A stretch of 64,000 nt of DNA from an uncultured Gammaproteobacteria bacterium (GTDB lineage Bacteria; Patescibacteriota; Microgenomatia; Levybacterales; GWA1-39-11): contig CAYRUR010000001.1 in assembly GCA_964427615.1 (NCBI GenBank), positions 219,241 through 283,240 of the forward strand, written 5' to 3'. Positions within the stretch are counted from its first letter, which is position 1, and each line of letters starts with the position of its first letter. A model generated the notes under the pieces. It was not told the DNA's origin and did no database searches. It worked only from the letters and a program-made list of their open reading frames with translations. Positions 1 through 57,397 of the stretch are shown here, piece by piece. The translations under genes were made by a program, and so were the position numbers.

Positions 1-2174
1 GCGGACTTGGTAAGGAGATTGGCATACGTGGCTGGTATGATACTATCTTGTATTCCAGCAACAGCTTCTGAGAAAGCATCTCCATTTTGATTAACCGGGT
101 TGCTGGAAGAAGGAAGTGATTGATTATTTGGTAAAGTATTTTCCTCGATAAACTCATCTTGGTACTCTGAATTATCACTTGGTGGAGGTGTAGAGTCATC
201 GGATCCTGTTGAATTTTCAGTTTGTGGAGGGGTGGAATCATCTGAGTCTGCTGAATCTGATTGTGTATCCAAGTGCTCATCTGAAGATGCAGAGGTGTCT
301 TGCTCTGTTCTTGCTGTGGTTCCACCAGTTGCTTGATTTGCCCCAGAAGTAGATTTTGTATCCTTTTGTTTATGTTGGCCAGGTGTTACTACATCGCCGA
401 CCAAACTGCCAAATACATTGATAACCGTTACTACTAGTTTGCCGCTTCCAACGATATTATTGTTTACGAAATTAACAAGGTTGGCAATAATGCGAGCATC
501 TCCGGTTGTAATACTTGAATTTCCTCCTGTGTTAAAGCTGGCATCATTTCCGCCAGTGTTTGCAGATAGATTCAAATTATTTTGAATTTGTGCGTTATTA
601 GATTGAGAAGTAGAATTATTATTTTCTTGACTGCTACTGGCAGTATTAGTAGAGCCTGCGCCATTGGAGTTGTTAGAGGCTGTTATAGAACCGTCTGCTC
701 CAACACTTACTTCTGTACCAGGGGAAGCTGCATAATTGGCTCCTTCTGGTGCTCCTAAGATTTTACCCACCCACTTACCTGCCTCATTTACAATTACTAG
801 CCACCATGTTCCACCATTTACATTTGAGTTTGCAATATTTAGTACATTTGCGGATACTTCTGTATCTCCTGTATTAACAGTGGAGTTGCCATCGGTATTG
901 TAGCTAGTAGTATTGTTGCCGGTAGTTGCATCCAGAATAAGGTTGTTATCAATGTCAGCTGTATTAAATTGATCAGTTGTAGTGGTGGTGGTTTGATTGC
1001 TGTTGGCAGTATTAGTAGAGCCAGCTCCATTATTGGTGTTGGAGGCCGCTGTGTTATTACAGGTGCTGCAAGCGTTATTAATAGCAGACTCTGGAATAAT
1101 AATATCTCCCACTAGGTTACCAAAAATATTGACCACCCCAAACACTACATTTCCTGAAATATTATTATTTACAAAGGTGAGCGCATTGGCAGCAACATTT
1201 GCATCACCGGTAGTAATACTTGAGTCACCATTTGTGTTGTAACTGGCTTTATTATTTCCAGAATCAGCACTTAAGGTAAGGTCGCTTCCAATAATGGCAT
1301 CATTGGTTTGGAAAGTATTCGTATTAGTGGTATTGTTGGTTTCAGCTGTGTTATCAGAAAATGCACCATTTCCAGAATTTTGAGTGCCAACTGTTGTTCC
1401 ATTACAACCTGAAATGCAGTTTGCGTTGAAATCTAAGACAATATCTCCATTATGGTCGTCGGTGATATTAAATTCAGAAATTGCAACACCAGAGACATTG
1501 GTATTTACAGCAGTTATAGCAGTTCCTGAAGTATTTGCATCACCACTGGTAACTGTTGCTGAACTGCCAGTATTAAAGGAGGCAGAATTATCTCCAGTTA
1601 CTGTCGCTTGGTTTAGGTCACTCTGTACATTGGCATCATTATTTTGTTCTGTGTCGGTATTGTTAGTAGTATTAGTTGATCCATGATTTTCAGAAAAAGC
1701 TCCATTGTCTTTATTAGTTACGGTTTGTTCTGATCCAGCATTATTATTAGGTTTTGCAGCAGCATTTGTATTACCAGTAGTAATGGTGGTGGCGCTGTTG
1801 TTGGCATCACCACTTGTAACATTTGCATTTCCTTCTTGTGTATTTGTCTGAGCATCTGGTGTTGGGTTTTGTTGTGCTGTTGGTTGGGTGAGTGCAGAAG
1901 AAGTATCAGTATTTGGTGTGTTATCAGTATCAGTAGAAGATTGAGTAGTAGATGTTGGGTTGTTTTCTGAGGTTGGTGTAGGGGTTGTAGGAGCAGAAGA
2001 GTCAGGGGTAGGACTGCTGGGAGCAGTGGGGGCTACTGGAGGTGTTGGAATAGATAGTTCTTGAGCGCTGATAGGTACAATACTTACTTGAGCAAAAAGA
2101 AGGAGTATAGTGAGAGCAAGAGCTACTGTTTGTTTTATTTTTTTAAGTTGTAGTTTTGGTGTCAATTGTTTCAT
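1..2174 (-). CDS. Secreted Asn/Thr/Gly/Asp-rich tandem-repeat surface protein, N-terminal part only; the C-terminus lies beyond the left window edge
   Basis: ATG (complement of 2172-2174) begins a minus-strand frame that I read by eye for >720 codons to position 1 with no stop noticed, so it runs off the window. The N-terminus MKQLTPKLQLKKIKQTVALALTILLLFAQVSIVPISAQ is signal-peptide-like. Repeats of about 90 aa carry the motifs NGAFSDN, (F/Y)NT.G.S.ITTGDAN and VNNNI.G...V.NIFG.LVGD. The ORF track shows only short antisense ORFs here. Confidence 0.62.
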   Translation of the reverse strand, partial: MKQLTPKLQLKKIKQTVALALTILLLFAQVSIVPISAQELSIPTPPVAPTAPSSPTPDSSAPTTPTPTSENNPTSTTQSSTDTDNTPNTDTSSALTQPTAQQNPTPDAQTNTQEGNANVTSGDANNSATTITTGNTNAAAKPNNNAGSEQTVTNKDNGAFSENHGSTNTTNNTDTEQNNDANVQSDLNQATVTGDNSASFNTGSSATVTSGDANTSGTAITAVNTNVSGVAISEFNITDDHNGDIVLDFNANCISGCNGTTVGTQNSGNGAFSDNTAETNNTTNTNTFQTNDAIIGSDLTLSADSGNNKASYNTNGDSSITTGDANVAANALTFVNNNISGNVVFGVVNIFGNLVGDIIIPESAINNACSTCNNTAASNTNNGAGSTNTANSNQTTTTTTDQFNTADIDNNLILDATTGNNTTSYNTDGNSTVNTGDTEVSANVLNIANSNVNGGTWWLVIVNEAGKWVGKILGAPEGANYAASPGTEVSVGADGSITASNNSNGAGSTNTASSSQENNNSTSQSNNAQIQNNLNLSANTGGNDASFNTGGNSSITTGDARIIANLVNFVNNNIVGSGKLVVTVINVFGSLVGDVVTPGQHKQKDTKSTSGANQATGGTTARTEQDTSASSDEHLDTQSDSADSDDSTPPQTENSTGSDDSTPPPSDNSEYQDEFIEENTLPNNQSLPSSSNPVNQNGDAFSEAVAGIQDSIIPATYANLLTKS

Positions 2175-2282
2175 ATATGTTTTGTATTATTTAGAATAAG
2201 TTCTTTTTTATTTTTTTGTGGGTGTTGTAGGGTAGATTATCGAAGTGCCAACAATCATACCCTACTTTTTTCCCACTTTTGT

Positions 2283-3503
2283 CTATACAAACAGCTTGAG
2301 ATGATCCAAAAGATCTTCTATATCGAAAGAAAACCCAATATGGTTATCTTTCAAGAAATCAAATGGATTATCTTCTCCAATGATGTTTGCGTTTGCAGTA
2401 TTCTGAATGCGAATACGTGAGTCTGCGTCACCGGTTTCAATTTCAGTGTCGCCTCTTGTATTGAAGCCTGCAAAGTTATCCCCAGTTTCTAGGTCTCTTA
2501 CATCGATGTCATTATCCAAGTCAGCATCGTTGTCCTGATCTAAATCAGTGGTATCATCGAGTGTAAGGTCAATAACGTTGAGAGACTCTGCTCCGTTGTC
2601 ATCAATCTTTGCTAAAGCATCAAATGCACATCCGCAGTCAACGTCTGCATGGTTAAAGTTGACCAAGTTATCAACTATGACCTCTGCATTTGCATCACCA
2701 GTTTCAATTTCAACATCGCCTCTTGTATTGAAGCTAGCTGTGTTGTCGCCAGTTTCTGCATCTACATCAACGTCATTGTCGATATCTGCATCATTATCTT
2801 GGTCTATCTCAGTATCTTGATCGAGATCAGCAGTGATGAAATTATCACTGAAGGCTCCATTATCAAGAATTTTTGCGCTGAAAGATCCGGATGAACGGTT
2901 ATGACCGTTTCCTATAGATGCACTGTTGGCATTGGCTATAGTGCGTAAGTTGACTTTTGTATTAGCATCACCAGTCTGGATGCTTACATCTCCCCGTGTG
3001 TTGAAGTCAGCGGTATTATTTCCCGTGTCTGCATCTACGTCAATGTCGTTGTCTACATCTGCATCATTGTCCTGATCTATGTCGATAGTGTTGTCATTCT
3101 CTATATCTACAACATTGTCTGAAAATGCTCCATTATCCTCAATGAGGACACTGCTGCCTTCTGACTTACAACAGTCAACCTTTGCTTTATTACTGTTTAG
3201 TACATTTTGTACATTAACAGAGGTGTTAGCATCTCCTGTCTTGATCTCTACATCTCCTCCGGTGTTAAAGCTGGCGCTATTGTTTCCTGTATTCGCATCG
3301 ACATCAATATTGTTATCTACATCGGCATCGTTGTTTTGCCGTATGGTAGTATCACTTGATTGGTTTATTGTTGCGAAGTTATCAGAAAATGCGCCATTTC
3401 CAGAAATCTCAGTGGTTGTACTTGCGAGTGCTGGGGCGCCCATAGAAAGTATGACTGCCCCTGCTGTCATTGCTGAAAAAAGTTGTTTTTTAAGATTTGT
3501 CAT
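2283..3503 (-). CDS. Secreted Asp/Asn-rich protein with four repeats of about 88 aa, paralog of the upstream repeat protein
   Basis: ORF 2283..3542. The internal ATG at 3503 is preceded by GGAGGTG (spacer about 11 nt) and followed by MTNLKKQLFSAMTAGAVILSMGAPALAS (signal peptide). There are four repeats NGAFSDN...DQDNDADVDNDIDVDA.TGNN.A.FNTRGDVEI.TGDAN. No LPXTG is present. Confidence 0.75.
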   Translation of the reverse strand: MTNLKKQLFSAMTAGAVILSMGAPALASTTTEISGNGAFSDNFATINQSSDTTIRQNNDADVDNNIDVDANTGNNSASFNTGGDVEIKTGDANTSVNVQNVLNSNKAKVDCCKSEGSSVLIEDNGAFSDNVVDIENDNTIDIDQDNDADVDNDIDVDADTGNNTADFNTRGDVSIQTGDANTKVNLRTIANANSASIGNGHNRSSGSFSAKILDNGAFSDNFITADLDQDTEIDQDNDADIDNDVDVDAETGDNTASFNTRGDVEIETGDANAEVIVDNLVNFNHADVDCGCAFDALAKIDDNGAESLNVIDLTLDDTTDLDQDNDADLDNDIDVRDLETGDNFAGFNTRGDTEIETGDADSRIRIQNTANANIIGEDNPFDFLKDNHIGFSFDIEDLLDHLKLFV

Positions 3504-3620
3504 ATGTTTAGTTTCACCTCCCTTCTTTTTCCTTTGATACAAATCAAAGTGTAATTTTTGTGCTAAAAGTTTTGCTTAACACAAGCACTTCTTTTTTTAC
3601 CGCTTTTGTTTCGTTATGTA

Positions 3621-3682
3621 TTCCGAAAACAAAAAACGGAGGCTTCTCAATCCAACTAGTGTTAGGTTGAAAAGCCTCCGTT
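3621..3682 (-). terminator. Intrinsic terminator: a 16-bp inverted repeat (one mismatch) with a 16-nt loop and a U-tract on the minus strand
   Basis: AACGGAGGCTTCTCAA (3635-3650) pairs with TTGAAAAGCCTCCGTT (3667-3682). The plus-strand A-run 3627-3636 reads as a U-run 3' of the hairpin on the minus strand. It lies downstream of the minus-strand gene 3986-4552. Confidence 0.6.
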
Positions 3683-3985
3683 CTCGGTAGGTTAATTACT
3701 TAATGTAGGGTTCTCTCGGCAGAAAGAATTAGTGACTTCCTTTTGAAAAATAGGTAGTTAATATATACAAACAGACTCTTTTATTGTCAATATACCTAGA
3801 CAGTATCTTACTTTTTTCTTACTCCTATCAGTGTTTATTTTTAAGCTGTATTGAAATTTCTTTTGAGCTGGATTTTGGTAGGAGGGAAGATAAAGATCAT
3901 TTTTTATTTGTTCTTTATAAGAGCAACTACTGTTATGGTTGTGGTTCTTTTGATTGTAGTTTTTTACAGAGAAAGTATCCATTAC

Positions 3986-4552
3986 TTATTTAAAGTTAAG
4001 TTGTATTTTTTGTTTGTTTCCGTTGATTTCTCCTATCTGTAAGACAAAGTGAGTATCAGTAATATTTACGGGAAAACCTACTCGAGTGTATTTTGTGGAA
4101 ATTGCCTGTACTTCTACAGGATCATTGTGTATTTCAGGGGCAAGCCATTCGGTCTCATTGTTATTTATTGCTAGCCTGATATAGTCTCTGCTATTAATTT
4201 GCAAGCCTTGGTCTAAGCTATTTATCATTTTGATATTAATAATCAGAAATTGTCTTCCGGCAGCAGCAGTTGCTTTTTGTCCTTTGACGATAATTTCATC
4301 CCTTAGTTCTGCGCTCTGAATAGTATAAGAAAAGGTTGCTATGTCCTCTCCGTCATTATTTTTTAAAGGAAAATTAAATGTTTTGTCGATTTTTTGAGTA
4401 GAAAGGGGTTTGCTGGTTGCAGCAGTAGTATTATTACCAGTTATTGGTAAAGAAGAAAGAGGGAAAAAAACTTGCAAAATCAAAAAGATGAAGATAGCAA
4501 CAAAAATGATGGGAAGAGTTATTTTAATTGTTTTTTTTGTATTGAAACTCAT
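3986..4552 (-). CDS. Membrane-anchored DUF4352-like (beta-sandwich) protein
   Basis: ORF 3986..4612. The likely start is the internal M (MSFNTKKTIKITLPIIFVAIFIFLILQVFF), an N-terminal TM anchor. The Thr/Ala-rich linker and the C-terminal domain resemble DUF4352 by eye. Confidence 0.45.
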   Translation of the reverse strand: MSFNTKKTIKITLPIIFVAIFIFLILQVFFPLSSLPITGNNTTAATSKPLSTQKIDKTFNFPLKNNDGEDIATFSYTIQSAELRDEIIVKGQKATAAAGRQFLIINIKMINSLDQGLQINSRDYIRLAINNNETEWLAPEIHNDPVEVQAISTKYTRVGFPVNITDTHFVLQIGEINGNKQKIQLNFK

Positions 4553-27939: not shown

Positions 27940-30165
27940 ATGAATATTCTGCCCTTTCTGAAAAAAACAAAAGAAGAAAGAGAATACTTTCTTGCACTTA
28001 TTCTGAAGCAAAACAGAATCGGTGCTATTCTCTTTGAAAAGACTGCAAAAGGACTTGATGTGCTTACCTCCTCTGATCAGGAGCAGAAAAATCTGCAAAG
28101 CTTAACCGATGAGGAGCTTATTGAAGCATCTGATGCAGTTATTTCCACTGTTGAGAAAAGCCTTCCTCCTCACATAGATCTTAAAAAAACCATTTTTGCT
28201 ATTCCGTATACCTGGCAAGATGAAGGAAAAATAAAACCTGAAAACCTGACAAGATTGAAGAAAGTGTGTCAGGAATTAGATCTTACACCAGTTGGTTTTA
28301 TTGTCTCTATTGAAGCTATGATTCATGCCCTGCAGCAGAAGGAGGGAGCCTCTTTATCTGCTCTGTTTGTGGAAGTAGAGAAAAAAGAGGTTCATGTTTT
28401 CTTAGTAAAGAACGGAAAAATACTGCAAGTTAAAAATGGAGAATGGCAAAGCTCTGTGGTGGATACCGTAGAAAAACTACTAAAAGATATAGAAGAAGTT
28501 GAGGTGCTTCCTCCCCGTATTTTTTTGCAAGATGATAAAGAAAGTCATGCTATCCAGCAATCATTTTTGCATCACAGTTGGCCAGCAGACCTCCCCTTTT
28601 TACATGTTCCACAGGTGATTGTGTTTGAAAAAGGGTTTGAAAACGAGGCACTGATTCATGGTGTAGCCTCTCAAATGGGAGTTGAGATGTCTTTTGCCAA
28701 ACAAGACACTCAGCCTGCTGAGGAAGAAAGTGTAGAAAATGCAATTGAGCCAGTCGAAGAGCTTGAACATATTGATAAACAAGCCAATTTTTATAAAGAA
28801 GTAGATGTGCGATTTGAGAAAGCTCCGGTTGAAGAGGAAAAGGAAGATAAGCCTGAAGCTTCTTTTGCGCAGGAAAGCAGCAGTGTGCCTACCCATGCTT
28901 TACCCTTAGCAGAAGAAACCTCAGAGAAAAAAGAATCTTTCCTAAAAAAGATACGGACATTAGCTATCGTGGGAAGTCTTAAAGAAAAAATGAGTAGTAT
29001 CTCTCTTCCTTCCTTTTTAGGTGGGTCGAATATGCGTCTTAAAATTGGAGGAGGTATAGCAGTAGGCATACTTCTATTAGTAGCTTTTGTGTATTCCTAC
29101 TATGCCTTTATAACTCGAGCGGAGATTGTGCTTTTTTTGGATAAAAGAATGGTAACAGAAGAAGTGCCGGTAACCTTTTCTACAGAAGATGAGACCTCTG
29201 TAGAAGATGCAGTTATTCGTCTTGCTACTACCTCTCAAGAACTGGAAGGCTCAGCCAAACAAAAAACAACCGGTAAAAAAGAAACGGGTGAAAAAGCAAA
29301 GGGAGAAGTGACTATTTATAACAAGACTGATGAACCGCAAACAATTGAAAAAGGAACTATCCTTAGTTCTTCAAATGATTTAGAATTTGAGACATTAGAT
29401 GAGGTAAAAGTTGCCTCGACCAGTTCTTTTTCTACTTCATTTTCGAGTAGTAAAGTAAGTGTCGAAGCAAGAAAATTAGGCAAAGAATACAATCTCCCTT
29501 CTGCTACTAACTTTACGGTTGAGTCTTTTTCTTCCTCAGAGGTGTTTGCGAAAAATGACTCTGCTTTTTCAGGAGGTTCTAAAAAAGAATTAAAAGTAGT
29601 GTCTGAAAAAGATTTAGCAGATCTTGAAGAAGCTATTGAAAAGCAATTGAGTGAGAAGGTATCGTCTTCTTTATCAAGTGGTGAAAGTGGCGATACAGTT
29701 ATTCCTGCTATTCTTGCGACAGAATTTGTAGAGAAAAAATTCAGTAAAAAAGAAGGAGAAGAAGCAGAGGAAGTATCTCTATCAGCAAAACTGGCCTTTG
29801 AAATTGGAAGATATAACGAAGAAGATTTAGAAAGCTTTGCCCAAGAACTAACCAATGAATCTATTCCAGAGGGGTATACCTATGTAAAAGATGAATCGCG
29901 TATTCAAATAGAAGATGTAGAAGTAACAGAAGGTGCGATGAATGGGGTTTTGGCTGTGGAGGCAGTGTATGTACCTGCACTTGAAGTAGACACTTTAGCA
30001 AAAGACCAGCAAAGAAAGAGTAAAAAAGAGGTAGAAAAGCAATTACAGGAGCTAAAAGGTGTGTCTGATGTTACCGTAATTTTGAAAAACCAGTTGCCAT
30101 TGTTGCCTGCATTGCTTCCTTTTAATGCCAAGCATATTATCATTCAAACGAAAGCTCATGAGTAA
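27940..30165 (+). CDS. Bitopic membrane protein: N-terminal cytoplasmic domain of about 350 aa, one TM helix, and a Ser/Glu/Lys-rich exodomain
   Basis: Its start abuts the alaS stop. The TM helix is GGGIAVGILLLVAFVYSYYAFI. The N-terminal domain has a weak actin-like (FtsA/PilM-like) appearance, which is speculative. Confidence 0.55.
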   Translation: MNILPFLKKTKEEREYFLALILKQNRIGAILFEKTAKGLDVLTSSDQEQKNLQSLTDEELIEASDAVISTVEKSLPPHIDLKKTIFAIPYTWQDEGKIKPENLTRLKKVCQELDLTPVGFIVSIEAMIHALQQKEGASLSALFVEVEKKEVHVFLVKNGKILQVKNGEWQSSVVDTVEKLLKDIEEVEVLPPRIFLQDDKESHAIQQSFLHHSWPADLPFLHVPQVIVFEKGFENEALIHGVASQMGVEMSFAKQDTQPAEEESVENAIEPVEELEHIDKQANFYKEVDVRFEKAPVEEEKEDKPEASFAQESSSVPTHALPLAEETSEKKESFLKKIRTLAIVGSLKEKMSSISLPSFLGGSNMRLKIGGGIAVGILLLVAFVYSYYAFITRAEIVLFLDKRMVTEEVPVTFSTEDETSVEDAVIRLATTSQELEGSAKQKTTGKKETGEKAKGEVTIYNKTDEPQTIEKGTILSSSNDLEFETLDEVKVASTSSFSTSFSSSKVSVEARKLGKEYNLPSATNFTVESFSSSEVFAKNDSAFSGGSKKELKVVSEKDLADLEEAIEKQLSEKVSSSLSSGESGDTVIPAILATEFVEKKFSKKEGEEAEEVSLSAKLAFEIGRYNEEDLESFAQELTNESIPEGYTYVKDESRIQIEDVEVTEGAMNGVLAVEAVYVPALEVDTLAKDQQRKSKKEVEKQLQELKGVSDVTVILKNQLPLLPALLPFNAKHIIIQTKAHE

Positions 30166-47292: not shown

Positions 47293-48474
47293 ATGGCTCG
47301 CAAAAAAATCTCTGAATACGCAGCAAAGAACTTATTGTACCGTTTTTTAGACACTCCTTATACTGGTATTAGTATCCACTCATCACAAGATTTAGAAAAA
47401 ATACAAACCCTCTCAACTGAGAAAACATATGTCGTAAAAGTTGATGAAGGGGTAAAGGGAAGGTTTAAGAAAGGGTTGGTGTTACTTGATGTTACCAAAG
47501 AGGACATACCTGCATCCATAAAAAAATTAGAAGAAAAAGGATATACCCAGTTTTTAGTTGAAGAGTTTTACCATTATAAGGCAGAAGAAGAGCATTATTT
47601 AGCAATTGAAAGAGTACGAGAGGGATACAAATTGCTGTATTCTGAAAAAGGTGGCATTGCCATTGAGGAACATGTAGCAGCAGTACAAGAAAAGATTTTC
47701 ACTACCAAAGAAGGAATAGAATCTGTTGCTACAGAATTACATCTGGATCCTTTACTGTTGCTCAATATTTTGGAGGTTTTTGATGCGTATTACTTCTCCT
47801 TTTTAGAAATAAATCCTTTTATTAAAAAAGACAACCGCTTTATTCCTGTTGACCTAGCAGTAGAAGTAGACAGTGCAGGTGCATTTTTTGTGCAGAACGG
47901 CTGGAAGCAAGAGGATATGGTGGAAGAAGGAAAAGACAAAACAAAAGAGGAAAAAAATATTGATATGCTCTCTTCCAAAAGCCAGGCTTCTTTTAAATTG
48001 AATATGTTGCATACAGATGGTTCTCTTTTTATGCTCTTATCAGGTGGGGGAGCAAGCCTGGTAGTAGCAGATGAGGCATATAATTTAGGTTTTGGCAAAG
48101 AAGTAGCAAATTATGGCGAATATAGTGGCAATCCAACAGAAGAGGAGACATATATTTACACGAAAAATTTGTTACAGCTTTTACTACAATCAAGCGCAAA
48201 ACAAAAAATGCTGATAATAGCAGGGGGAGTGGCCAATTTTACGGATGTAAGGATTACGTTTAGGGGTATTATAAAAGCACTGGATGAAGTAAAAGAAACC
48301 TTGCAACAAGAAGAGGTAAAAGTATATGTAAGACGAGGTGGACCTAACCAAGAAGAAGGTTTGGCAATGATGAAAGAATTCTTAACAAAAGAACAGCTGT
48401 ATGGACAGGTAAGTGGTCCTGAAATTGTCTTAACAGATGTTGTTAAAAATGCAGTTGCGTTACTTGAAAAATAA
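47293..48474 (+). CDS. aclB: ATP-citrate lyase beta (small, ATP-grasp) subunit
   Basis: By-eye alignment to human ACLY N-terminus. MARKKISEYAAKNLLYRFL matches MSAKAISEQTGKELLYKFI. SGGGASLVVADE...ANYGEYSGNP and IIAGGVANFTDV...VRRGGPNQEEGL also match. Confidence 0.85.
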   Translation: MARKKISEYAAKNLLYRFLDTPYTGISIHSSQDLEKIQTLSTEKTYVVKVDEGVKGRFKKGLVLLDVTKEDIPASIKKLEEKGYTQFLVEEFYHYKAEEEHYLAIERVREGYKLLYSEKGGIAIEEHVAAVQEKIFTTKEGIESVATELHLDPLLLLNILEVFDAYYFSFLEINPFIKKDNRFIPVDLAVEVDSAGAFFVQNGWKQEDMVEEGKDKTKEEKNIDMLSSKSQASFKLNMLHTDGSLFMLLSGGGASLVVADEAYNLGFGKEVANYGEYSGNPTEEETYIYTKNLLQLLLQSSAKQKMLIIAGGVANFTDVRITFRGIIKALDEVKETLQQEEVKVYVRRGGPNQEEGLAMMKEFLTKEQLYGQVSGPEIVLTDVVKNAVALLEK

Positions 48475-48476
48475 CT

Positions 48477-50261
48477 ATGCTTACGATATCAAATATTAGA
48501 AAAACAGCGCACACCATACTCTGTATTGGTAGTCATCCAGGCATTATTCAGTCTATGCTGGATTTTGACTATTTAGCTGGTAAAAAAGAGCCAAGTGTAG
48601 TTGCTATTCTTGCAGCAGGAAGAAATTCTGAAAAGTATTTCTTTGGCAAAAGGGAAATACTCCTACCAGTGTATCACTCATTGCAAGCAATTCCAGAAGA
48701 GGTAAAACAGCACATTACCCTCTTTTTAAATCTGTCCTCTGCCAGAAGAGTGCTTTCTAGCACCCAAGATGTACTAGAACAGCTTCCAAACATACAGGGA
48801 GGAGCAATTTTTGCAGAAGATGTGCCTGAAAAACACTCACTAGATCTTTATCAAATAACTCGAGAAAAAGGAGTTTTTATAGTGGGTCCGGCAAGTGTGG
48901 GACTGCTTATTCCAGGAGTACTCAAGTTAGGTGCAGTTGGTGGGGTCGATATGCGGCAGTTAGTCGATTCACATTTATTTACTTCCGGAAGTGTGGCAGT
49001 ATTTTCAGCCTCCGGTGGGATGACGAATGAATTAATTCGTATTGTAACGCAGCAAGGAAAGCGCCTTTCTTTTGCTCTTGCTTTTGGAGGAGATAGATTT
49101 CCCATTACGAGTCCAGAGGACGCACTGCTTGCAGCTGAGCAAGATCCTGACACTGATACTATCTGCTACTTTGGAGAATTAGGAGGAACAGATGAGTATG
49201 TTATTGCTCAATTGTTGCATGAGAAAAAAATAACCAAAAAAGTCATTTGTTATATTGCTGGTGTTATTGCGGACCTTTTTGAAACTCCTCCCCAATTTGG
49301 ACACGCCAAAGCCATGGCAAAAGACAAACAGGAAAGCGCACAAGAAAAGAGAAAAATCTTACAAGAAGCAGGAGCTATTGTGCCTGAGTCTTTCACTGCA
49401 TTTGTAGAAGAGATAAAAAAGCTTCCTACAATCTCCTATAAAGAAGTAGATGTAACCGAAAAAATGCAGGCGATAAGAAGTCGAAAAAAAGCTCTTTTTT
49501 CCTCTTCTATCTCAGGTGATAAAGACGGACAAGCACAGATACTAGGTATTGATTTACTTACTTTTGCTAAAAGCCATTCGTTTGCTGCTACTGTTGCCTC
49601 TCTTTTTCTGGGACGGGAAGTCCAGTCAAAAGAAGTGGAAGACTTTATTGATTTTATCCTCCGCTTGTTAGTGGATCATGGGCCGTATCAATCAGGAGCA
49701 GTGAATACCATGATTACTGCTCGTGCGGGAAAGGACTTGCCATCAGCACTTGCATCAGGCATTTTAACGATTGGACCTCGTTTTGGCGGAGCAGTAAATC
49801 AGGCAGCTTTGAATTGGCTGAAAGGTGCAGAGAGTAAAAAATCGGTTATAGAATTTGTGGAGGACTTTGCTAGAAGAAAGGAATATATTTCAGGCATTGG
49901 ACATAAAAAATACAGAATTGACTTTCCAGATCCAAGGGTTGAGGAAATCTTAAAATTTACAGATGGTCTCAAAGAGAAAAAGTACGTGCAATTTGCACAA
50001 TCAGTAGAAAAAGTTACCGCAACCAAAAAAGGTAATTTGATTTTAAATGTTGATGGTGCCATTGCAGCAGTTTTGCTGGACTTATTGAGCGAAAAAGAGG
50101 GGATGAATGAGCAAGAGCTACAAAAATTGGCAGAACATGAATTCTTTAATGCACTCTTTATTGCTTCCCGTTCTATTGGTTTTATTGCTCACTATTTGGA
50201 TCAAAAAAGGCTTGATGAAGGGTTATTTAGATTATCAGAAGATGATGTGCTAGGAGTTTAA
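48477..50261 (+). CDS. aclA: ATP-citrate lyase alpha (large) subunit: CoA-binding/phospho-His domain plus a citrate-synthase-like domain
   Basis: [28 protein letters not shown] and the phospho-His motif QFGHAKA are present. The C-terminal domain [43 protein letters not shown] is near-identical to the ACLY stretch [54 protein letters not shown] also matches. Confidence 0.88.
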   Translation: [594 protein letters not shown]

Positions 50262-52828: not shown

Positions 52829-54037
52829 ATGGATAATGATATTGAAAGTAAAGTAAAAAACTTTGGAAGAGGTAGTGAAAAGAAACTTTCTTTACCAGGA
52901 GGTAATGAGCCGCAGACAAAACAATTTGAGGAGAGATTGAAAGATGTATCTTCACAGGAAACTTTTCCTCCGGAAAATGAAATTGATGCCGTACGGGCAA
53001 AGATTCATACACTGACGGGACAAAAGGACGACGAAGGAAGTTTAGGACAAAATGTTGATGTAGCAACTGGTGATGTGCTTGAGGATAGAAATGAAGAGGA
53101 GAGATTTACCCGAAGAAAAGCTATGGAAAAAGGACTTAAACTTGGATTGGGTGGAATTGCTTGGGCAGCTGGAATTAATGCCTTGAATTGGATCCGAGGA
53201 AACAATGATAGAAGAGGTCCCTTTGAACGGACACCAGAAAGAATGCCATACACCGCAGAACAAGTACCCGATGTTGAAATGGAAAGGATACCACAACGAG
53301 ATATGTCTTTTTATAATCTTTTATTTCCCAATTTAGAAAATCTAGGAGAAGAAGCACAAGATGCGTTGGCGACAGAAGTAGAAAAATACAGAAATGATTA
53401 CTTACAAAAAGAACGTGTTGTGATTGATGAAATCATAAGTAAAAGAGATCCTGTAATTCAGGAAGTGGTTGAAAACATAAAAGGTATTGATGACGAAAGA
53501 AAAGTATTTTTGAGAAAAGCATTAGGAGGGATTATTTTTGCAGAGTCTAGAAATGTTGAAAATCCTTCCGAGGATGAGGATGTTGTGGGATTGTGTCAGG
53601 TAAAGACTGGCACTGCTGGTCTTTCAAGGGAAGCATTGCTTCATCCAGAAACAAATATCAAAGCTGCAGCAGAGTATTTAAACACATTGTGTAATACCAT
53701 ACCAGACCGTGCATTAGCTTTGTGGGCATATAATATTGGGGAAGGAAATATTGCATATTTTATGGGGAACTATTTAAACGCATTAGACTCTAAAACTCCA
53801 GAAATGATAGAAGATATACAAGAGATGCTAGATAAAAATAGTGAAGCACGAGTAAATTTGATTGAAAAGTATATTAACAATGGGATGGTAGATTTTTATA
53901 CGCTTGTGTCTTCTTCAACTGTTGATAATGTAATAAAATCAGAAATTGATGAAGAGGAAACGTCAGGATATGTATATCGAGTTGCCGGAGCAGCTTTAGC
54001 AGCAGAACAGCGAACAGCAGAAATGAAGTTAGGATAA
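52829..54037 (+). CDS. Membrane-anchored lytic transglycosylase (SLT domain)
   Basis: Hydrophobic helix GLKLGLGGIAWAAGINALNWI. SLT motif AESRNVENPSEDEDVVGLCQVKTGTA with catalytic Glu in ES, plus AYNIGEGN. Confidence 0.7.
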   Translation: MDNDIESKVKNFGRGSEKKLSLPGGNEPQTKQFEERLKDVSSQETFPPENEIDAVRAKIHTLTGQKDDEGSLGQNVDVATGDVLEDRNEEERFTRRKAMEKGLKLGLGGIAWAAGINALNWIRGNNDRRGPFERTPERMPYTAEQVPDVEMERIPQRDMSFYNLLFPNLENLGEEAQDALATEVEKYRNDYLQKERVVIDEIISKRDPVIQEVVENIKGIDDERKVFLRKALGGIIFAESRNVENPSEDEDVVGLCQVKTGTAGLSREALLHPETNIKAAAEYLNTLCNTIPDRALALWAYNIGEGNIAYFMGNYLNALDSKTPEMIEDIQEMLDKNSEARVNLIEKYINNGMVDFYTLVSSSTVDNVIKSEIDEEETSGYVYRVAGAALAAEQRTAEMKLG

Positions 54038-54056
54038 ATAAAGAATCCCTTTTTTC

Positions 54057-54299
54057 TTATCGACCTGAGATGTTTCCTCTGTCTCCTCTTCGTAATGCTT
54101 TTCTATGACCATGCCCTGGTTTTGTTTCCTGAGGTTGTTTCTGTGGAATAAAGGCTTCTTGTCCTTCTTGCAGAGTTTCTTCTGGCTCTACTATAAATAA
54201 ACCCCTTCCATCCTTTCGATATGAAAATGGCATAATGCGACTTTCTTTTGGCATATAACGTAAATAAATAGAAGGGCAGGGGAAATTTTTAGTATACAA
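54057..54299 (-). CDS. Hypothetical small basic protein
   Basis: 80-aa ORF overlapping the ICMT-like gene by 11 nt. Confidence 0.25.
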   Translation of the reverse strand: MYTKNFPCPSIYLRYMPKESRIMPFSYRKDGRGLFIVEPEETLQEGQEAFIPQKQPQETKPGHGHRKALRRGDRGNISGR

Positions 54300-54735
54300 A
54301 AGGAATCAGGCTTGCTGTTTTTTGTATATACTCATGATACTGTTTGGCAAAGTGTGCTTTGAGCAAATCTTCCTCAAATTGGACTTTTATATAAAGATCT
54401 ACTACCAAAATAACAAAAGCCGCAAATCTACCAAAGGTAAAGAAGTTAAGTAATAGTGCAAGAGCAATCAAGATTACTCCTGTATACATCGGATGGCGGA
54501 TATATTTATATGGTCCGGTAGTAATAAGGGTACTTCCTTTTCCTGGTTGAGGAGTGATTTGAAAGGTGGTAGTTCTCATATGCCAAAAAGCCCAGAAAAT
54601 AAGGAAAAACCCCAGGCTCATGATAAGGAGGGTAACAGGGTTTTGAGGGACAACAACTCCGCTTAAGAATAAATACAGCAGGACAAAAAATTGGATACCA
54701 ACCAGAATGAGTGATTTAGGATCATTTGAAAGCAT
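54289..54735 (-). CDS. ICMT/PEMT-family membrane methyltransferase
   Basis: Multi-TM protein with a YKYIRHPMYTG...EE motif. Confidence 0.75.
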   Translation of the reverse strand: MLSNDPKSLILVGIQFFVLLYLFLSGVVVPQNPVTLLIMSLGFFLIFWAFWHMRTTTFQITPQPGKGSTLITTGPYKYIRHPMYTGVILIALALLLNFFTFGRFAAFVILVVDLYIKVQFEEDLLKAHFAKQYHEYIQKTASLIPFVY

Positions 54736-54781
54736 ATATTTATTATATAGAGGTAATAAGTTTTTTACAAACGTAAGTTGA

Positions 54782-57397
54782 TTACTTTAAATAAAACGTC
54801 TCTCCATCGGAGATCTTGGATTTGGGTTTGTTCTTGTCCTCAGTTTGTTTTGACTGTTTTTCTTGATTTTTATCATGTGGTTTTTTATCGGTATATTGTT
54901 TTTGCTGAGCTTGATGATGTTGTACATTTTTATGGTCTTTTGATTGTTTTTTTTCAGAAGAAGGATTGTGTTGTGGATGCTGTTTTGCAGTCTGTTGAGT
55001 TGGTTGGCCTTGTTTTGCCTGTGCTTTTTCTTCTTGCTTTTGGGCAGGATGATTTGTTGGTTGTCCGGCTGAATGGTGGGGTTTTTCCTGTTGTTTGACT
55101 GGAGTTTTTACCTCTTGGTTTTTGACAGAAGCAGTAACTGATAAGTCAGATTGTTTTTGCTGTGGTAGATTACTTGGTGCTCTTTGCTCTTGTTTAGGTG
55201 CTGGCCCGTCATATTTTTTATATTCAGGTTTTTCTACTACTAAAGGAGTTATCGTTTTATAATATCTTTCCTGAGATCCTTTTAAGACTTTTGGCCTATT
55301 TTGGTTACGACTATTAGGTAACGGCAAAGTTTGAGCCAAAAATGGAGAGCTTGTCATACCATCAATAGAGAGTCTGGTAATAATTTGATGCCTTCCAAGT
55401 GCGAGAATATCCTCTGCCTGGTATCTTTCTCCAAATTCTTTGGCTAAAATATCTAAATCCTCAGCTCCCACTAAAAAGGTCATGAGTGTGCCGACATTTC
55501 CAAAAATAGCACTTTTCAGTTCCGGTGGAAGTTGAGCCATGTACTGATTAGCAAGTGTTAAATTTAGACGATACTTGCGTGCCTCAGATAAGATTTTAAT
55601 AAAGGAGGTAGTGGCAAAGTTCTGGAACTCGTCAACATAGAGAAAGAAGTCCTTACGTTCTGCTTCAGGTATATACACACGATTCATGGCCGCCAATTGT
55701 AGTTTGGTAATAGTCATAGCACCTAGCAATGCAGAGTTATCTTCTCCCATTTTTCCTTGTGAAAGGTTGAAAAGCAGGATTTTTCTGTTGTTCATAATGT
55801 CTTCCAGATCAATAGTTGATTTAGGGTGTCCTACGATATTGCGGATAACATTGGAGGATAAAAATTGTCCTACTTTATTTAAAATTGGAGAGGTTGATTC
55901 TGTCATCATACGGTCATTCATTTTATTGAACTCATCCAGCCAGAAGGCTTTGATGACAGGATCAGTAACATATGTTTCTACAACTCTAGTGCGATATTTG
56001 TCATCTGTTAGAATGCGTGGTACGAGCATAAGTGTAGCATTGGGAATTTCAAGTAAAGTTAGAATAGTATTGCGTAAAATATACTCCAGTCGCGGTCCCC
56101 AAGAGTTTCCGTATAATTTATAGAAAATCGCTACGATACCGGAGGCAATCAGATCTTTTTGTGAAAGATCTTCATCCAATGGATTTAAATGAAATGATTT
56201 GCCTGTTCCTTCTGTGGGACTCAGATATACTACATCATTAATGCGATATGAAGGAATATAATCTAGGATTGTTTCACATAAATCTCCGTGAGGATCAATA
56301 ACTGCCAGTCCTTCACCATTTCTAATATCGTTGATTACCATATTAGCAATAAGCGTTGATTTTCCGACACCTGTTTTTCCGATGATATAGGTGTGTTTTC
56401 TCCTATCAATACGCTTCATACCAAAAGTAGAGAGGGTATTGCGAAAATAGGTTTTTGCAAAAAAATTAATTTCTTTTTTTCCTTCTGCATCAAGTCCTAA
56501 AGCAATGGGGAGGTCTTCTGGAGCATCAGAAAAAATTGTTTTTGCCCAGGAGATGTTGTGGATAGTTGAAAGTTGTTTGCCAGGAAAATGGAAAAGGGTA
56601 GCAATCTCTGAAAGATTTAGTATTTGGCCTGTAGGGATAAAAGATCCGCTACGGGTGATAAAAGCAGTATGTAGCTTGTCCTTTTGCCATAGATAAGGTT
56701 TTTTAAGCGACAGGCTGTTTCCGCTTGCGTTATTAAAGCCTGAAAAAGCAGTGGCGATTTGCAAAAAGAGGTCTTTATTAGGGCTTTTGACAAAGAGGCG
56801 GATACCTACCTTAAAACCATGTTGTCCTATTTTTTCACCAATCACCGCTGCATGAGGATTGGTAGAAGTAGTGCCGTCTGCGTTGGTGGTCTTTTTTTCC
56901 ATTTGTGCTCTTCCACTTGACTGCCAACTATTGCCAATTGGGACCAATAAATACTGAATGACCACCTGATCTTCTTGGGTAAGCTTTGATAACAAGCCTA
57001 ATAGTGAGGAAAGAGGGTCTACTTCCTTAAAATCAGTATATGTTTTTAAGGGGAGCAGATGTGATTGGTTGAGTGTAAGTTGTCCTTCGCGGATAGGAGC
57101 AGTAGGTTGGAGAACATACTTTAGGTAGTCTTCTTGCAAATGTCTTATTTGGGAATGTGGGTACTGTGAGTAAATCTGGCTTTCAATAAAGGGGGCAAGT
57201 GCTTTTGGGAGGACAACATAAAAATAAATAGTCTGGTCAAAAACAGCAATTTCAAAACTGATAGGAATGCCCTTTTTGATGAAAAAATAATGGGTTTTGC
57301 GCAGATTGGTAAGACTGGCTAACAACTGTACCATTACTTCCGGAGTTTCTTCACCAGTGCGTGGTGTTTTTATCTCTAAAATAGCCTTTTCTTCCAT
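54782..57397 (-). CDS. VirD4/TraG/TraD-like type IV coupling protein ATPase, soluble, with a long Gln/Lys-rich disordered tail
   Basis: Walker A is GKTGVGKST, followed about 20 aa later by VIDPHGD and then NPLD. Walker B is FLYVDEFQNF, and RLNLTLANQYMAQL is the T4CP Q-motif. No N-terminal TM helices. SD AGAGGT upstream. Confidence 0.7.
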   Translation of the reverse strand: MEEKAILEIKTPRTGEETPEVMVQLLASLTNLRKTHYFFIKKGIPISFEIAVFDQTIYFYVVLPKALAPFIESQIYSQYPHSQIRHLQEDYLKYVLQPTAPIREGQLTLNQSHLLPLKTYTDFKEVDPLSSLLGLLSKLTQEDQVVIQYLLVPIGNSWQSSGRAQMEKKTTNADGTTSTNPHAAVIGEKIGQHGFKVGIRLFVKSPNKDLFLQIATAFSGFNNASGNSLSLKKPYLWQKDKLHTAFITRSGSFIPTGQILNLSEIATLFHFPGKQLSTIHNISWAKTIFSDAPEDLPIALGLDAEGKKEINFFAKTYFRNTLSTFGMKRIDRRKHTYIIGKTGVGKSTLIANMVINDIRNGEGLAVIDPHGDLCETILDYIPSYRINDVVYLSPTEGTGKSFHLNPLDEDLSQKDLIASGIVAIFYKLYGNSWGPRLEYILRNTILTLLEIPNATLMLVPRILTDDKYRTRVVETYVTDPVIKAFWLDEFNKMNDRMMTESTSPILNKVGQFLSSNVIRNIVGHPKSTIDLEDIMNNRKILLFNLSQGKMGEDNSALLGAMTITKLQLAAMNRVYIPEAERKDFFLYVDEFQNFATTSFIKILSEARKYRLNLTLANQYMAQLPPELKSAIFGNVGTLMTFLVGAEDLDILAKEFGERYQAEDILALGRHQIITRLSIDGMTSSPFLAQTLPLPNSRNQNRPKVLKGSQERYYKTITPLVVEKPEYKKYDGPAPKQEQRAPSNLPQQKQSDLSVTASVKNQEVKTPVKQQEKPHHSAGQPTNHPAQKQEEKAQAKQGQPTQQTAKQHPQHNPSSEKKQSKDHKNVQHHQAQQKQYTDKKPHDKNQEKQSKQTEDKNKPKSKISDGETFYLK

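Follow-up and report, generated by a model that had tools for sequence, protein, structure and literature searches.

The chaplins of Streptomyces are secreted paralogues which share one domain. They comprise the long, sortase-anchored ChpA-C and the short, free ChpD-H, and the anchorless members are thought to assemble on the sortase-anchored ones at the cell surface. At the level of the message, base-pairing between the 5'UTR and the 3'UTR of one bacterial mRNA is known from Staphylococcus aureus icaR and Bacillus subtilis hbs. A large part of bacterial diversity is accounted for by the CPR bacteria (Patescibacteria), almost none of which have been cultured; the molecular make-up of their cell surface, which forms their interface with the presumed hosts, is largely unknown.

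Here we present an analysis of two genes, A and B, which lie at one end of a 64,000-nucleotide stretch of DNA (the window) from a Microgenomates (CPR) genome, and of the operon to which they belong. This operon, conserved throughout the sampled Microgenomates candidate phyla (at least seven) and carrying no annotation at all, supplies a defined group of candidate envelope proteins that can be put to the test. Its repeat family, of some 3,000 cluster representatives, is missing from Pfam and NCBIfam.

Genes A and B

The features of the locus are collected in Table 1. The ATG of gene A occupies bases 3503-3501 and its TAG stop bases 2285-2283 of the minus strand. Public gene calls begin the gene at a TTG, giving 419 aa; this start is probably wrong because the homologues of gene A align from MTNxKKQ. 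The protein has a pI of about 4.05 (87 Asp plus Glu versus 20 Lys plus Arg), and the acidity of A proteins as a whole is conserved, the median net charge being -56. Also conserved are the Cys motifs CC (residues 111-112) and CGC (290-292), and an acidic/aromatic C-terminal tail. None of 70 A proteins carries an LPxTG motif.

Gene B starts at base 2174 and runs for 724 codons down to base 3 with zero stops, which bears out the open frame given by the initial annotation; the full contig yields 769 aa. That annotation had taken the gene of at least 720 aa for the upstream one, but it is the downstream one, and it is its C-terminus that leaves the window. The order within the protein is signal peptide (residues 1-38), Pro/Thr-rich spacer to about residue 150, four repeats, and an acidic, Ser/Thr/Pro-rich stalk. 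The final 45 residues lie outside the window; they begin the membrane-anchor region with INLAW, a conserved motif, and continue with a TM helix and then a basic tail. Among B proteins INLAW occurs in 59 of 70 and a TM-like C-terminus in 67 of 70, and B is predicted to be membrane-anchored through this segment.

Signal peptides had been claimed for both genes and, on inspection, appear to be present: the N-termini are Sec-like, with a basic n-region, a hydrophobic core, and ALA↓S and SAQ↓E, the signal peptide of A covering residues 1-27. The repeat length of approximately 88-90 aa, reported for both, holds for one of them. In gene A the TG(D/N)N.A.FNT cores stand at residues 72, 160, 251 and 340, giving four repeats with a period of 88-91 aa, and 88 is the main autocorrelation peak among 51 homologues. 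The four full repeats of gene B have their cores at residues 193, 305, 418 and 540; its period is therefore 112-122 aa and not 88-90. Every gene B unit has an additional hydrophobic hairpin after the repeat and an N/T-rich linker, and a degenerate fifth half-unit is found near residue 121.

Table 1. Features of the gene A-gene B region (positions are those of the window)
Feature	Position	Strand	Remarks
Gene B	1..2174	-	First 724 of 769 aa; C-terminus runs off the window
Gene B repeat 4	414..674	-	aa 501-587
Gene B repeat 3	780..1040	-	aa 379-465
Gene B repeat 2	1119..1379	-	aa 266-352
Gene B repeat 1	1455..1715	-	aa 154-240
3' stem-loop	2205..2278	-	Directly after the A stop, in the A-B intergenic region
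Gene A	2283..3503	-	406 aa; secreted, anchorless, very acidic; more than 840 homologues of ~410 aa
Gene A repeat 4	2364..2606	-	aa 300-380
Gene A repeat 3	2628..2870	-	aa 212-292
Gene A repeat 2	2904..3143	-	aa 121-200
Gene A repeat 1	3174..3407	-	aa 33-110
Gene A RBS	3514..3522	-	GGGAGGTGA / GGGAGGUGA; AGGAGGUGA kept in relatives
GAAGUGC element	3585..3591	-	A 5' leader; complements the core of the 3' hairpin loop exactly
5' leader hairpin	3631..3686	-	AACGGAGGC...GCCUCCGUUUUUU; terminator-like, with U-tract
Syntenic upstream gene	3986..4552	-	188 aa; N-terminal TM helix; weak DUF4352-like domain

Organization of the operon

The paralogy of the two secreted proteins, as initially annotated, is confirmed (BLASTP with composition adjustment, E 9e-26, all four repeats in register), but there are three in tandem and not two: a third, C, lies downstream of gene B just outside the window and is followed by a sortase gene. 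A check for an LPXTG or S-layer anchor had been proposed for the end of gene B; gene B has neither, INLAW, TM helix and basic tail standing there instead, and it is C that carries the LPXTG motif. In this genome C ends ...TLPVTG-SFYLLLMIFANLMIFMWGLYL-RYHSGRSPTKFA, in which a hydrophobic stretch and then a basic tail come after LPVTG. The neighbouring sortase matches, and passes, both TIGR01076 and PF04203, and the His, Cys (in a TLxTC-like LQTCTP) and Arg are visible by inspection. C is the predicted substrate of this sortase, by which it would be cleaved.

Related loci were searched for with a 7-sequence alignment. In about 70 Microgenomates loci the genes run in the order TM/DUF4352-like protein, small DUF2292 protein, A, B, C and sortase, often with a D gene encoded on the other strand. 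Among the 81 loci scored for synteny, from at least seven candidate phyla, A and B occur together in 70, with C in 66, with the sortase as well in 53 and with D in 31; contig ends account for most of the shortfall. Of the complete proteins at the C position (n=59), 44 have LPxTG, nine a GLSxTSG-like pattern plus a hydrophobic segment, and six neither; two of these six show the closely related GLAAT(S/A)G, and three are D-type proteins in loci of different gene order. D is a basic paralogue (median pI 8.97) with no anchor. The operon shows a clear split of labour between a predicted covalent anchor (C), a predicted membrane anchor (B) and free subunits.

The 188-aa TM/DUF4352-like gene precedes A in nearly all related loci. 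The DUF2292 gene is lacking in the genome studied here, with no remnant at 3501-4000, and no D gene is present within the 64 kb; therefore both are either dispensable or encoded elsewhere. A 74-aa ORF on the public contig (3758-3982) is without homologue or family and shares part of its span with the promoter and leader, so that it is probably spurious.

The repeat family and its predicted fold

Repeats 1 and 4 of gene A match one another with an E of 2e-15, and 16 columns are invariant across the eight repeats of A and B. N, Q, G, T and A are the residues which do not vary. At E<=1e-3 the family numbers 3107 cluster representatives, in two main size classes which match A and B. The architecture is fixed, with four repeats in about 410 aa (A) or about 750 aa (B), at 45-55% identity across candidate phyla.

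The initial annotation could place the repeat in no named family, and this stands: sequence searches of Pfam, NCBIfam and PDB gave no match for A or B. No Pfam or NCBIfam domain was found in A, B or C, hence no SLH, CWB2 or similar S-layer anchoring module. With C and the genes upstream of A included, the same searches returned only the sortase, the weak DUF4352 and, in relatives, DUF2292. We found no description of the family in the literature on sortases, LPXTG proteins, S-layers or beta-solenoids of Gottesmanbacteria, CPR or Patescibacteria. One preprint reports S-layer proteins in Patescibacteria, its main text giving no identifiers. A and B are real members of an unnamed, uncharacterised family of secreted Asn/Asp/Thr/Gly-rich repeat proteins, the function of which we infer below.

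AlphaFold models of A and B are of moderate confidence (pLDDT 66-70) and both belong to the beta-solenoid fold class, with parts of gene B disordered. They resemble SufD, RTX proteins, FapC and CsgA at the fold level only (5-15% identity), and Foldseek gave no significant match in PDB (best E 0.065). According to the models the 88-aa repeat would form about four rungs of approximately 22 residues each; Asn has a periodicity of 22 inside the unit. An ice-binding role, which is suggested by the Thr/Asn-rich flat solenoid faces, especially those of D, was set aside because nothing links these lineages, most of which derive from groundwater, with ice, and because the anchoring logic of the operon points elsewhere.

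RNA elements of the gene A message

The message of gene A contains two unannotated RNA elements backed by covariation. The 3' stem-loop has a middle stem, GUAGGGU/ACCCUAC, a variable inner stem and the loop GGCACUUC, the core of which (GCACUUC) corresponds to bases 2248-2242. Its 3' flank is A-rich and a U-tract is absent. The element folds with an MFE of -30.5 (z -6.1), and z falls below -3 after A in 96% of 70 loci as against 4% after B. Compensatory changes are seen in 15 of 16 pairs. Within the window the covariance model has a single match, of 47 bits; in each locus it again finds one, and this invariably lies after A. RNAalifold returned no structure from the intergenic regions as aligned by MAFFT without editing, the alignment being gappy; the support consists of the hand-drawn structure, the pair counts and the covariance model. 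This 3' structure is conserved and previously undescribed.

The second element is a structured leader of about 160-250 nt, the hairpin of which is preceded in relatives by the conserved GCUGACCGCAAACGGAGGCUU. The GAAGUGC of the leader and the GCACUUC of the 3' loop are conserved, complementary over 7 nt and covarying, which has the appearance of a long-range pairing between the 5' and 3' regions of the A mRNA. For regulation of this type, by pairing inside one mRNA, bacteria provide few examples. Rfam at gathering thresholds gave no hits in the 64 kb, and for bases 2100-4000, which take in the A 3' hairpin and leader, only two sub-threshold chance hits.

Proposed function and alternatives

A and B belong to a set of three or four paralogues encoded by a conserved Microgenomates surface operon, and we think it somewhat probable that this set forms a multi-paralogue fibre or coat. 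All paralogues would be exported by Sec. Since C carries the sorting signal (LPxTG, hydrophobic segment, basic tail) and the sortase adjoins it, C would be fixed covalently to the wall. B would be held in the membrane by its C-terminal anchor, behind the long disordered stalk. The highly acidic A and the basic D, both without an anchor, would join the anchored paralogues non-covalently, probably by end-to-end contacts between solenoids, by charge complementarity or by both, and the Asp-rich faces of A may bind divalent cations. The product would be a surface fibre or coat with A as its major free subunit. At the RNA level, the 3' stem-loop would set A apart from B, C and the sortase, and the pairing of its loop with the 5' leader most likely serves to stabilise the message of A or to insulate it, as a result of which A would be made in excess. 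It is solely this RNA architecture, leader and 3' hairpin, which suggests that A is abundant and hence the major subunit, and co-assembly of the paralogues into one structure we purely infer.

The strong sequence conservation argues for a structural role, though a conserved ligand-binding role would be compatible with it. The proteins could, in principle, be independent, monomeric, rod-like adhesins directed at a host cell, mineral or polysaccharide, with C wall-anchored, B membrane-anchored and A a soluble or loosely bound, lectin-like factor, without any co-assembly. This is unlikely in our opinion: adhesins usually vary fast in length and sequence whereas the architecture and identity described above are well maintained, and there is no obvious role in such a scheme for a free, extremely acidic and a free, basic paralogue. 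A Gram-positive-type pilus of subunits polymerised covalently by the sortase would account for a sortase gene beside several secreted paralogues, and the sortase of this genome, although below every class cut-off, has its best score with the class C (pilin) model (76 bits; cut-off 160 bits). However, for the sortases of two relatives class E is the best match, LPxTG is borne by C and not by A or B, the predicted fold is a beta-solenoid and not CnaB or Ig-like, and no pilin motif was identified; we regard a pilus as very improbable.

From D.D.D spacing the initial annotation had suggested a Ca-binding beta-roll or a solenoid surface array, such as an S-layer or adhesin. Extended to a calcium-dependent, RTX-like beta-roll which crystallises as an S-layer, as does Caulobacter RsaA, with Ca2+ bound by the Asp-rich faces of A, this appears quite improbable, and the annotation's Ca-binding beta-roll found no support. 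The RTX nonapeptide GGxGxDxUx has no matches (regex GG.G.D in gene A), Pfam gives no HemolysinCabind (PF00353) hit in A or B at E<=1, the operon has no T1SS genes and the signal peptides are of Sec and not of type I secretion. At the D.D.D positions B, C, D and many A homologues have Asn or some other residue, and the structural matches, RTX included, are those of fold only. One might ask if the repeats are an artefact of composition in low-complexity DNA, or if these are no real genes; the composition is indeed rich in N, T, S and G, and parts of gene B are modelled as disordered. The conservation data already refute such a view: the frames are intact and of considerable length, with a strong RBS, and there are thousands of homologues with conserved length and invariant columns, and synteny across candidate phyla.

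The multi-paralogue fibre or coat may be taken further. It is possible, though we offer it tentatively and with some doubt, that a lineage-wide envelope structure of the Microgenomates is built from this new beta-solenoid family, that acidic A and basic D co-polymerise on both wall-linked C and membrane-anchored B, and that a new cis-RNA system, in which an attenuator-like leader and the 7-nt 5'-3' pairing close the A mRNA, sets the output of the major subunit.

Comparison with described systems

The likeness to the chaplins is one of system logic only, namely anchored together with anchorless secreted paralogues. Chaplins have one hydrophobic domain of about 40 aa, and the present proteins have 88-aa solenoid repeats; Pfam gave no hit to the chaplin domain (DUF320). 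The chaplins are hydrophobic whereas A is extremely acidic, and B is TM-anchored here. In assembly logic the anchored and free subunits of the A-B-C operon can also be likened to CsgB and CsgA of curli. The Foldseek values for CsgA/CsgB and for Pseudomonas FapC (E 0.065-0.069) are not significant, A and B have no Pfam hit to the Curlin repeat (Curlin_rpt, PF07012), and their repeat unit consists, unlike that of curli and FapC, of four non-identical rungs. Curli and Fap employ an outer-membrane channel, CsgG or FapF, as opposed to a monoderm arrangement with Sec and sortase here; the operon contains no csgG- or fapF-like genes.

RTX proteins (CyaA block V, the RsaA S-layer, MpAFP/MpIBP region IV) are defined by a nonapeptide absent from A and B and by a T1SS signal and genes; the family described here has a Sec signal peptide, a period of 88 aa and rungs of about 22 aa. 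The LPXTG beta-solenoid adhesins of Firmicutes, such as the L. reuteri SRRP binding region (5nxk) and S. pneumoniae PfbA, are single large proteins with zero sequence similarity to A and B, and in the present operon the sorting signal is on C alone. As in icaR and hbs, a short complementary stretch joins the 3' region of the A message to its 5' leader. Unlike in those messages, a hairpin loop of 8 nt serves as the 3' partner in the A mRNA; its 5' partner is situated 40-100 nt ahead of the start codon, off the Shine-Dalgarno sequence.

Genes A and B

The paralogous genes A and B lie on the minus strand (see table of features). For gene A the ORF list, like the public call (P0001), starts from a TTG at 3542, 39 nt upstream of the ATG, giving a 419-aa product. 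Since 50 A homologues align from MTNxKKQ, the ATG, which is also preceded by a ribosome binding site, is the likely start. The initial annotation had described the gene running off the window as the upstream one; by the direction of transcription it is B, the downstream gene, and the portion that leaves is its C-terminus. Its 1-2174 frame is open on translation, and so contains no stop codon that would cast doubt on the gene.

Features of the window and of related loci. Positions are those of the window except where a locus (L002, L003) is named
Feature	Position	Strand	Description
Gene A	ATG 3503 to TAG 2285-2283	minus	406 aa
Ribosome binding site of A		minus	GGGAGGTGA, 10 nt upstream of ATG
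Gene B	start 2174	minus	open for 724 codons to window edge
Stem-loop after A	2278-2205	minus	starts 4 bases past A stop codon
Leader element GAAGUGC	3591-3585	minus	exact complement of loop core GCACUUC (2242-2248, minus)
Leader element AACGGAGG	3686-3631	minus	window copy
Promoter-like sequence	~3790-3762		TTGACA-N17-TATATA
Called ORF	3758-3982		74 aa, probably spurious
Gene D	L002:12755-13354 and 30 other loci	minus	~200 aa, CGC between its two repeats, anchorless
DUF2292 gene (examples)	L002:7528-7731, L003:7529-7687		
Ligase_CoA protein	48477-50261, with 47293-48474	plus	594 aa
Baseplate_J-like protein	27940-30165	plus	741 aa
Transglycosylase/TrwB-like region	52829-57397		402 aa and 871 aa

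Protein A has four repeat units with cores from aa 72, 160, 251 and 340 and a period of 88-91 aa, in keeping with the ~88-90 aa initially proposed. That figure does not hold for B, the four units of which (aa 193, 305, 418 and 540) have a period of 112-122 aa because each carries an extra hydrophobic hairpin (e.g. VVFGVVNIFGNLVGDIIIP) and N/T-rich linkers. An alignment of all eight units spans ~80 columns, of which 16 are invariant, and gives the pattern NG.(F/G)S.N ... Q.N.A ... (T/S)G.N.(A/T)..NT.G ... (T/S)GD ... N.N. With compositional adjustment on, A matches B at E 9e-26 with all four units in register, and repeat 1 of A matches its repeat 4 at E 2e-15; the similarity is well above a composition effect. 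The eight-unit profile found no additional copies in the remaining 60 kb of the window.

Conserved cysteine motifs terminate particular repeats in every paralogue class. The types are CC (A aa 111-112), CGC (A aa 290-292), CxxxC and CxxC, those of B being at aa 253/257 and 369/372; such motifs could form disulfides or bind metal.

Family and taxonomic distribution

Searches of A and B against Pfam-A, NCBIfam and all PDB chain sequences (phmmer) gave no match at cut-offs as loose as E<=1 or E<=10; no characterised domain was matched and the repeat family is, as originally stated, an unrecognised one. Among the scored candidates >840 proteins matched A and 706 matched B, nearly all of them "hypothetical" and none with a precomputed Pfam domain. 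A single-repeat profile identified 3107 cluster representatives at E<=1e-3 and 2025 at E<=1e-10 (1.84 billion searched), the commonest size classes being ~410 aa with four units and ~750 aa with four to five, which correspond to A and B. The named matches are to Candidatus Gottesman-, Davies-, Levy-, Roizman-, Ames-, Woese- and Curtissbacteria (Microgenomates group, CPR). Full-text literature searches returned no description of the protein family, the operon or the RNA.

Of the related MAG contigs (L004-L081), about half bear the title "uncultured Gammaproteobacteria bacterium" and single ones "Nanoarchaeia" or "Saccharibacteria". The Microgenomates operon is the same in all of them, which suggests that the titles are placeholders or binning/labelling errors.

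Predicted fold

AlphaFold2, run on 51-sequence alignments, gave all-beta models for A (pLDDT 70, pTM 0.64) and for the core of B (pLDDT 66, pTM 0.64), the conserved halves of the B unit scoring 80-92 and the N/T-rich linkers <50. FapC (72 aa at 1.5 A) and an RTX-like adhesin domain (77 aa at 2.4 A) are among the structural matches of the models, as are DUF4097-type "putative adhesins", TBCC/CAP beta-helices, CsgA and RsaA. The matches share 3-18% sequence identity with the models, those named 5-16%, and Foldseek found no significant match, its best being FapC and CsgA at E ~0.07. Judged from the models, the matches indicate fold class and not homology, and to that extent they agree with the solenoid first suggested. 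The 88-aa unit shows periodicity of Asn at lag 22 and of Asp at lag 2, which would fit four rungs of ~22 residues in which Asn forms ladders and an acidic strand face points outward. The accompanying proposal of a Ca-binding beta-roll gained no support from motif tests, the canonical RTX nonapeptide being absent.

Operon organization and anchors

A 36-kb Logan contig (L001) encodes an exact copy of protein A and does not differ from the window in the 3.6 kb compared. Here B is 769 aa long, its last 45 aa ending ...AEKDITINLAWLLLLTPLIPLFIAGKRIKKNRSLVKQTS; the C-terminus has a conserved motif followed by a TM helix and a basic tail, without LPXTG. B is followed by C, a paralogue of 391 aa with three repeats, ending in TLPVTG, a hydrophobic stretch and RYHSGRSPTKFA, a canonical sorting signal. 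Thus A and B are tandem paralogues as claimed, in a set of three rather than two, and the type of anchor looked for on the gene leaving the window is found on C. After C comes a 173-aa sortase (PF04203, E 2e-23) which passed TIGR01076 and fell under all class-specific cut-offs.

To sample synteny one genome per species was scanned, yielding 78 loci in which ORFs were classed by self-built profiles. The order is near-invariant: TM/DUF4352-like protein, DUF2292 small protein, A, B, C, sortase. A and B occur together in 70 loci, with C in 66 and also with the sortase in 53, the shortfalls being mostly due to contig ends. Just past the sortase, on the opposite strand, 31 loci carry D, a two-repeat paralogue of 200 aa which is a conserved, unannotated family in its own right; none was seen near the operon in the window's genome. 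The DUF2292 protein (YGSVEIYVQ..VTQITVRNIKKT) is encoded immediately 5' of the A leader in 74 of 81 related loci, and its constant place beside a structured leader raises the idea of a candidate regulator. The corresponding part of the window (3543-3985) has neither the gene nor a remnant.

None of 70 A proteins has LPxTG; their conserved C-terminus is an acidic/aromatic tail (..FDF.FSFDL.DLL..LGL). Among 70 B proteins INLAW, the motif near the C-terminus, is present in 59 and a TM-like C-terminus in 67. LPxTG occurs in 44 of 59 complete C-position proteins (LPATG 18, LPVTG 12, others), and a GLSxTSG-like pattern followed by a hydrophobic segment in nine; the six matching neither include two with the closely related GLAAT(S/A)G and three of D type in differently ordered loci. 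Median net charges are -56 for A (13% Asp), -37 for B and -15 for C, while D is basic (median pI 8.97).

RNA elements flanking gene A

The stem-loop after A has an MFE of -30.5 kcal/mol (z -6.1). For the 90 nt following A in 70 loci the median z is -6.06, with 96% < -3, versus 0.07 after B. When the 70 regions are aligned and a 16-pair structure is drawn on them by hand, pairs form in 85% of cells, compared with 41-48% when partners are slid; 15 of the 16 pairs show compensatory changes, double-change cells number 171 against 50 in shuffles, and G-U pairs are frequent, consistent with the sense strand. The covariance model has one match in the 64-kb window (47 bits, E 1.5e-9; runner-up 17.5 bits) and, in 1.16 Mb of related loci, one per locus in 61 loci, always directly 3' of A. 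The 8-nt loop NGCACUUC is near-invariant. As the 3' flank is A-rich, without a U-tract, this is not a canonical intrinsic terminator; the hairpin could stabilise the 3' end of the mRNA or be a site of RNase III-type processing.

The leader of A is also conserved, the order in relatives being GCUGACCGCAAACGGAGGCUU, hairpin, GCCUCCGUUUUUU, and AACGGAGG lies ~160 nt 5' of the ATG in 50 of 63 leaders. It resembles a terminator or attenuator. Downstream, 33 of 58 loci (9.4 expected) have an AAACGG that could re-pair with CCGUUUU of the 3' arm. A promoter-like sequence is also listed in the table.

The GAAGUGC 7-mer is present in 32 of 63 leaders (shuffles: mean 0.7, maximum 4), and its core AGUGC, found in 40, is always 40-100 nt 5' of the ATG. 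Seven or more contiguous leader-loop pairs can form in 46 of 53 loci versus 3-5 of 53 in controls. With both cores anchored independently, the flanking position is G:C in 32, G:U in 7, A:U in 3, U:A in 1 and G:A in 3 (permutation p 0.0016). In one locus a GCACCUU loop occurs together with AGGUGCA in the leader, and covariation between element and loop comprises A:U, U:A and C:G swaps and G:U wobbles. Complementarity and covariation together suggest direct 5'-3' pairing within the A mRNA as the simplest explanation. No Rfam family matches the hairpin or the leader.

Other features of the window

The 594-aa protein combines Ligase_CoA with a Citrate_synt C-terminal domain, an architecture like that of the ATP-citrate lyase alpha subunit and unexpected for a metabolically reduced CPR genome. 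The Baseplate_J-like domain protein is encoded immediately 3' of a short alanyl-tRNA synthetase (617 aa), and IF-2 is likewise a short form (487 aa). A region in which GC skew is raised contains an SLT lytic transglycosylase gene and, near it, the gene for a TrwB-like type IV coupling protein; this may be a conjugative or T4SS-like module. Rfam at gathering thresholds gave no matches in the 64-kb window; hence no tRNA, rRNA or known riboswitch was detected.

Interpretation and comparison with known systems

We regard A and B as members of a conserved, unannotated surface operon of Microgenomates that is linked to a sortase and has candidate RNA control elements of its own. [quoted passage not shown] We infer that the anchorless paralogues assemble onto the anchored ones to give a surface fibre or coat, of which A would be the major subunit. 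They may form an S-layer or act as adhesins, as first suggested; their constant architecture and an identity of 45-55% between candidate phyla speak for a structural function over that of a fast-evolving adhesin.

The systems closest in logic are the chaplins, in which long forms are sortase-anchored and short forms are free, and curli, with CsgB plus CsgA, although the defining domain of neither was found in A or B.
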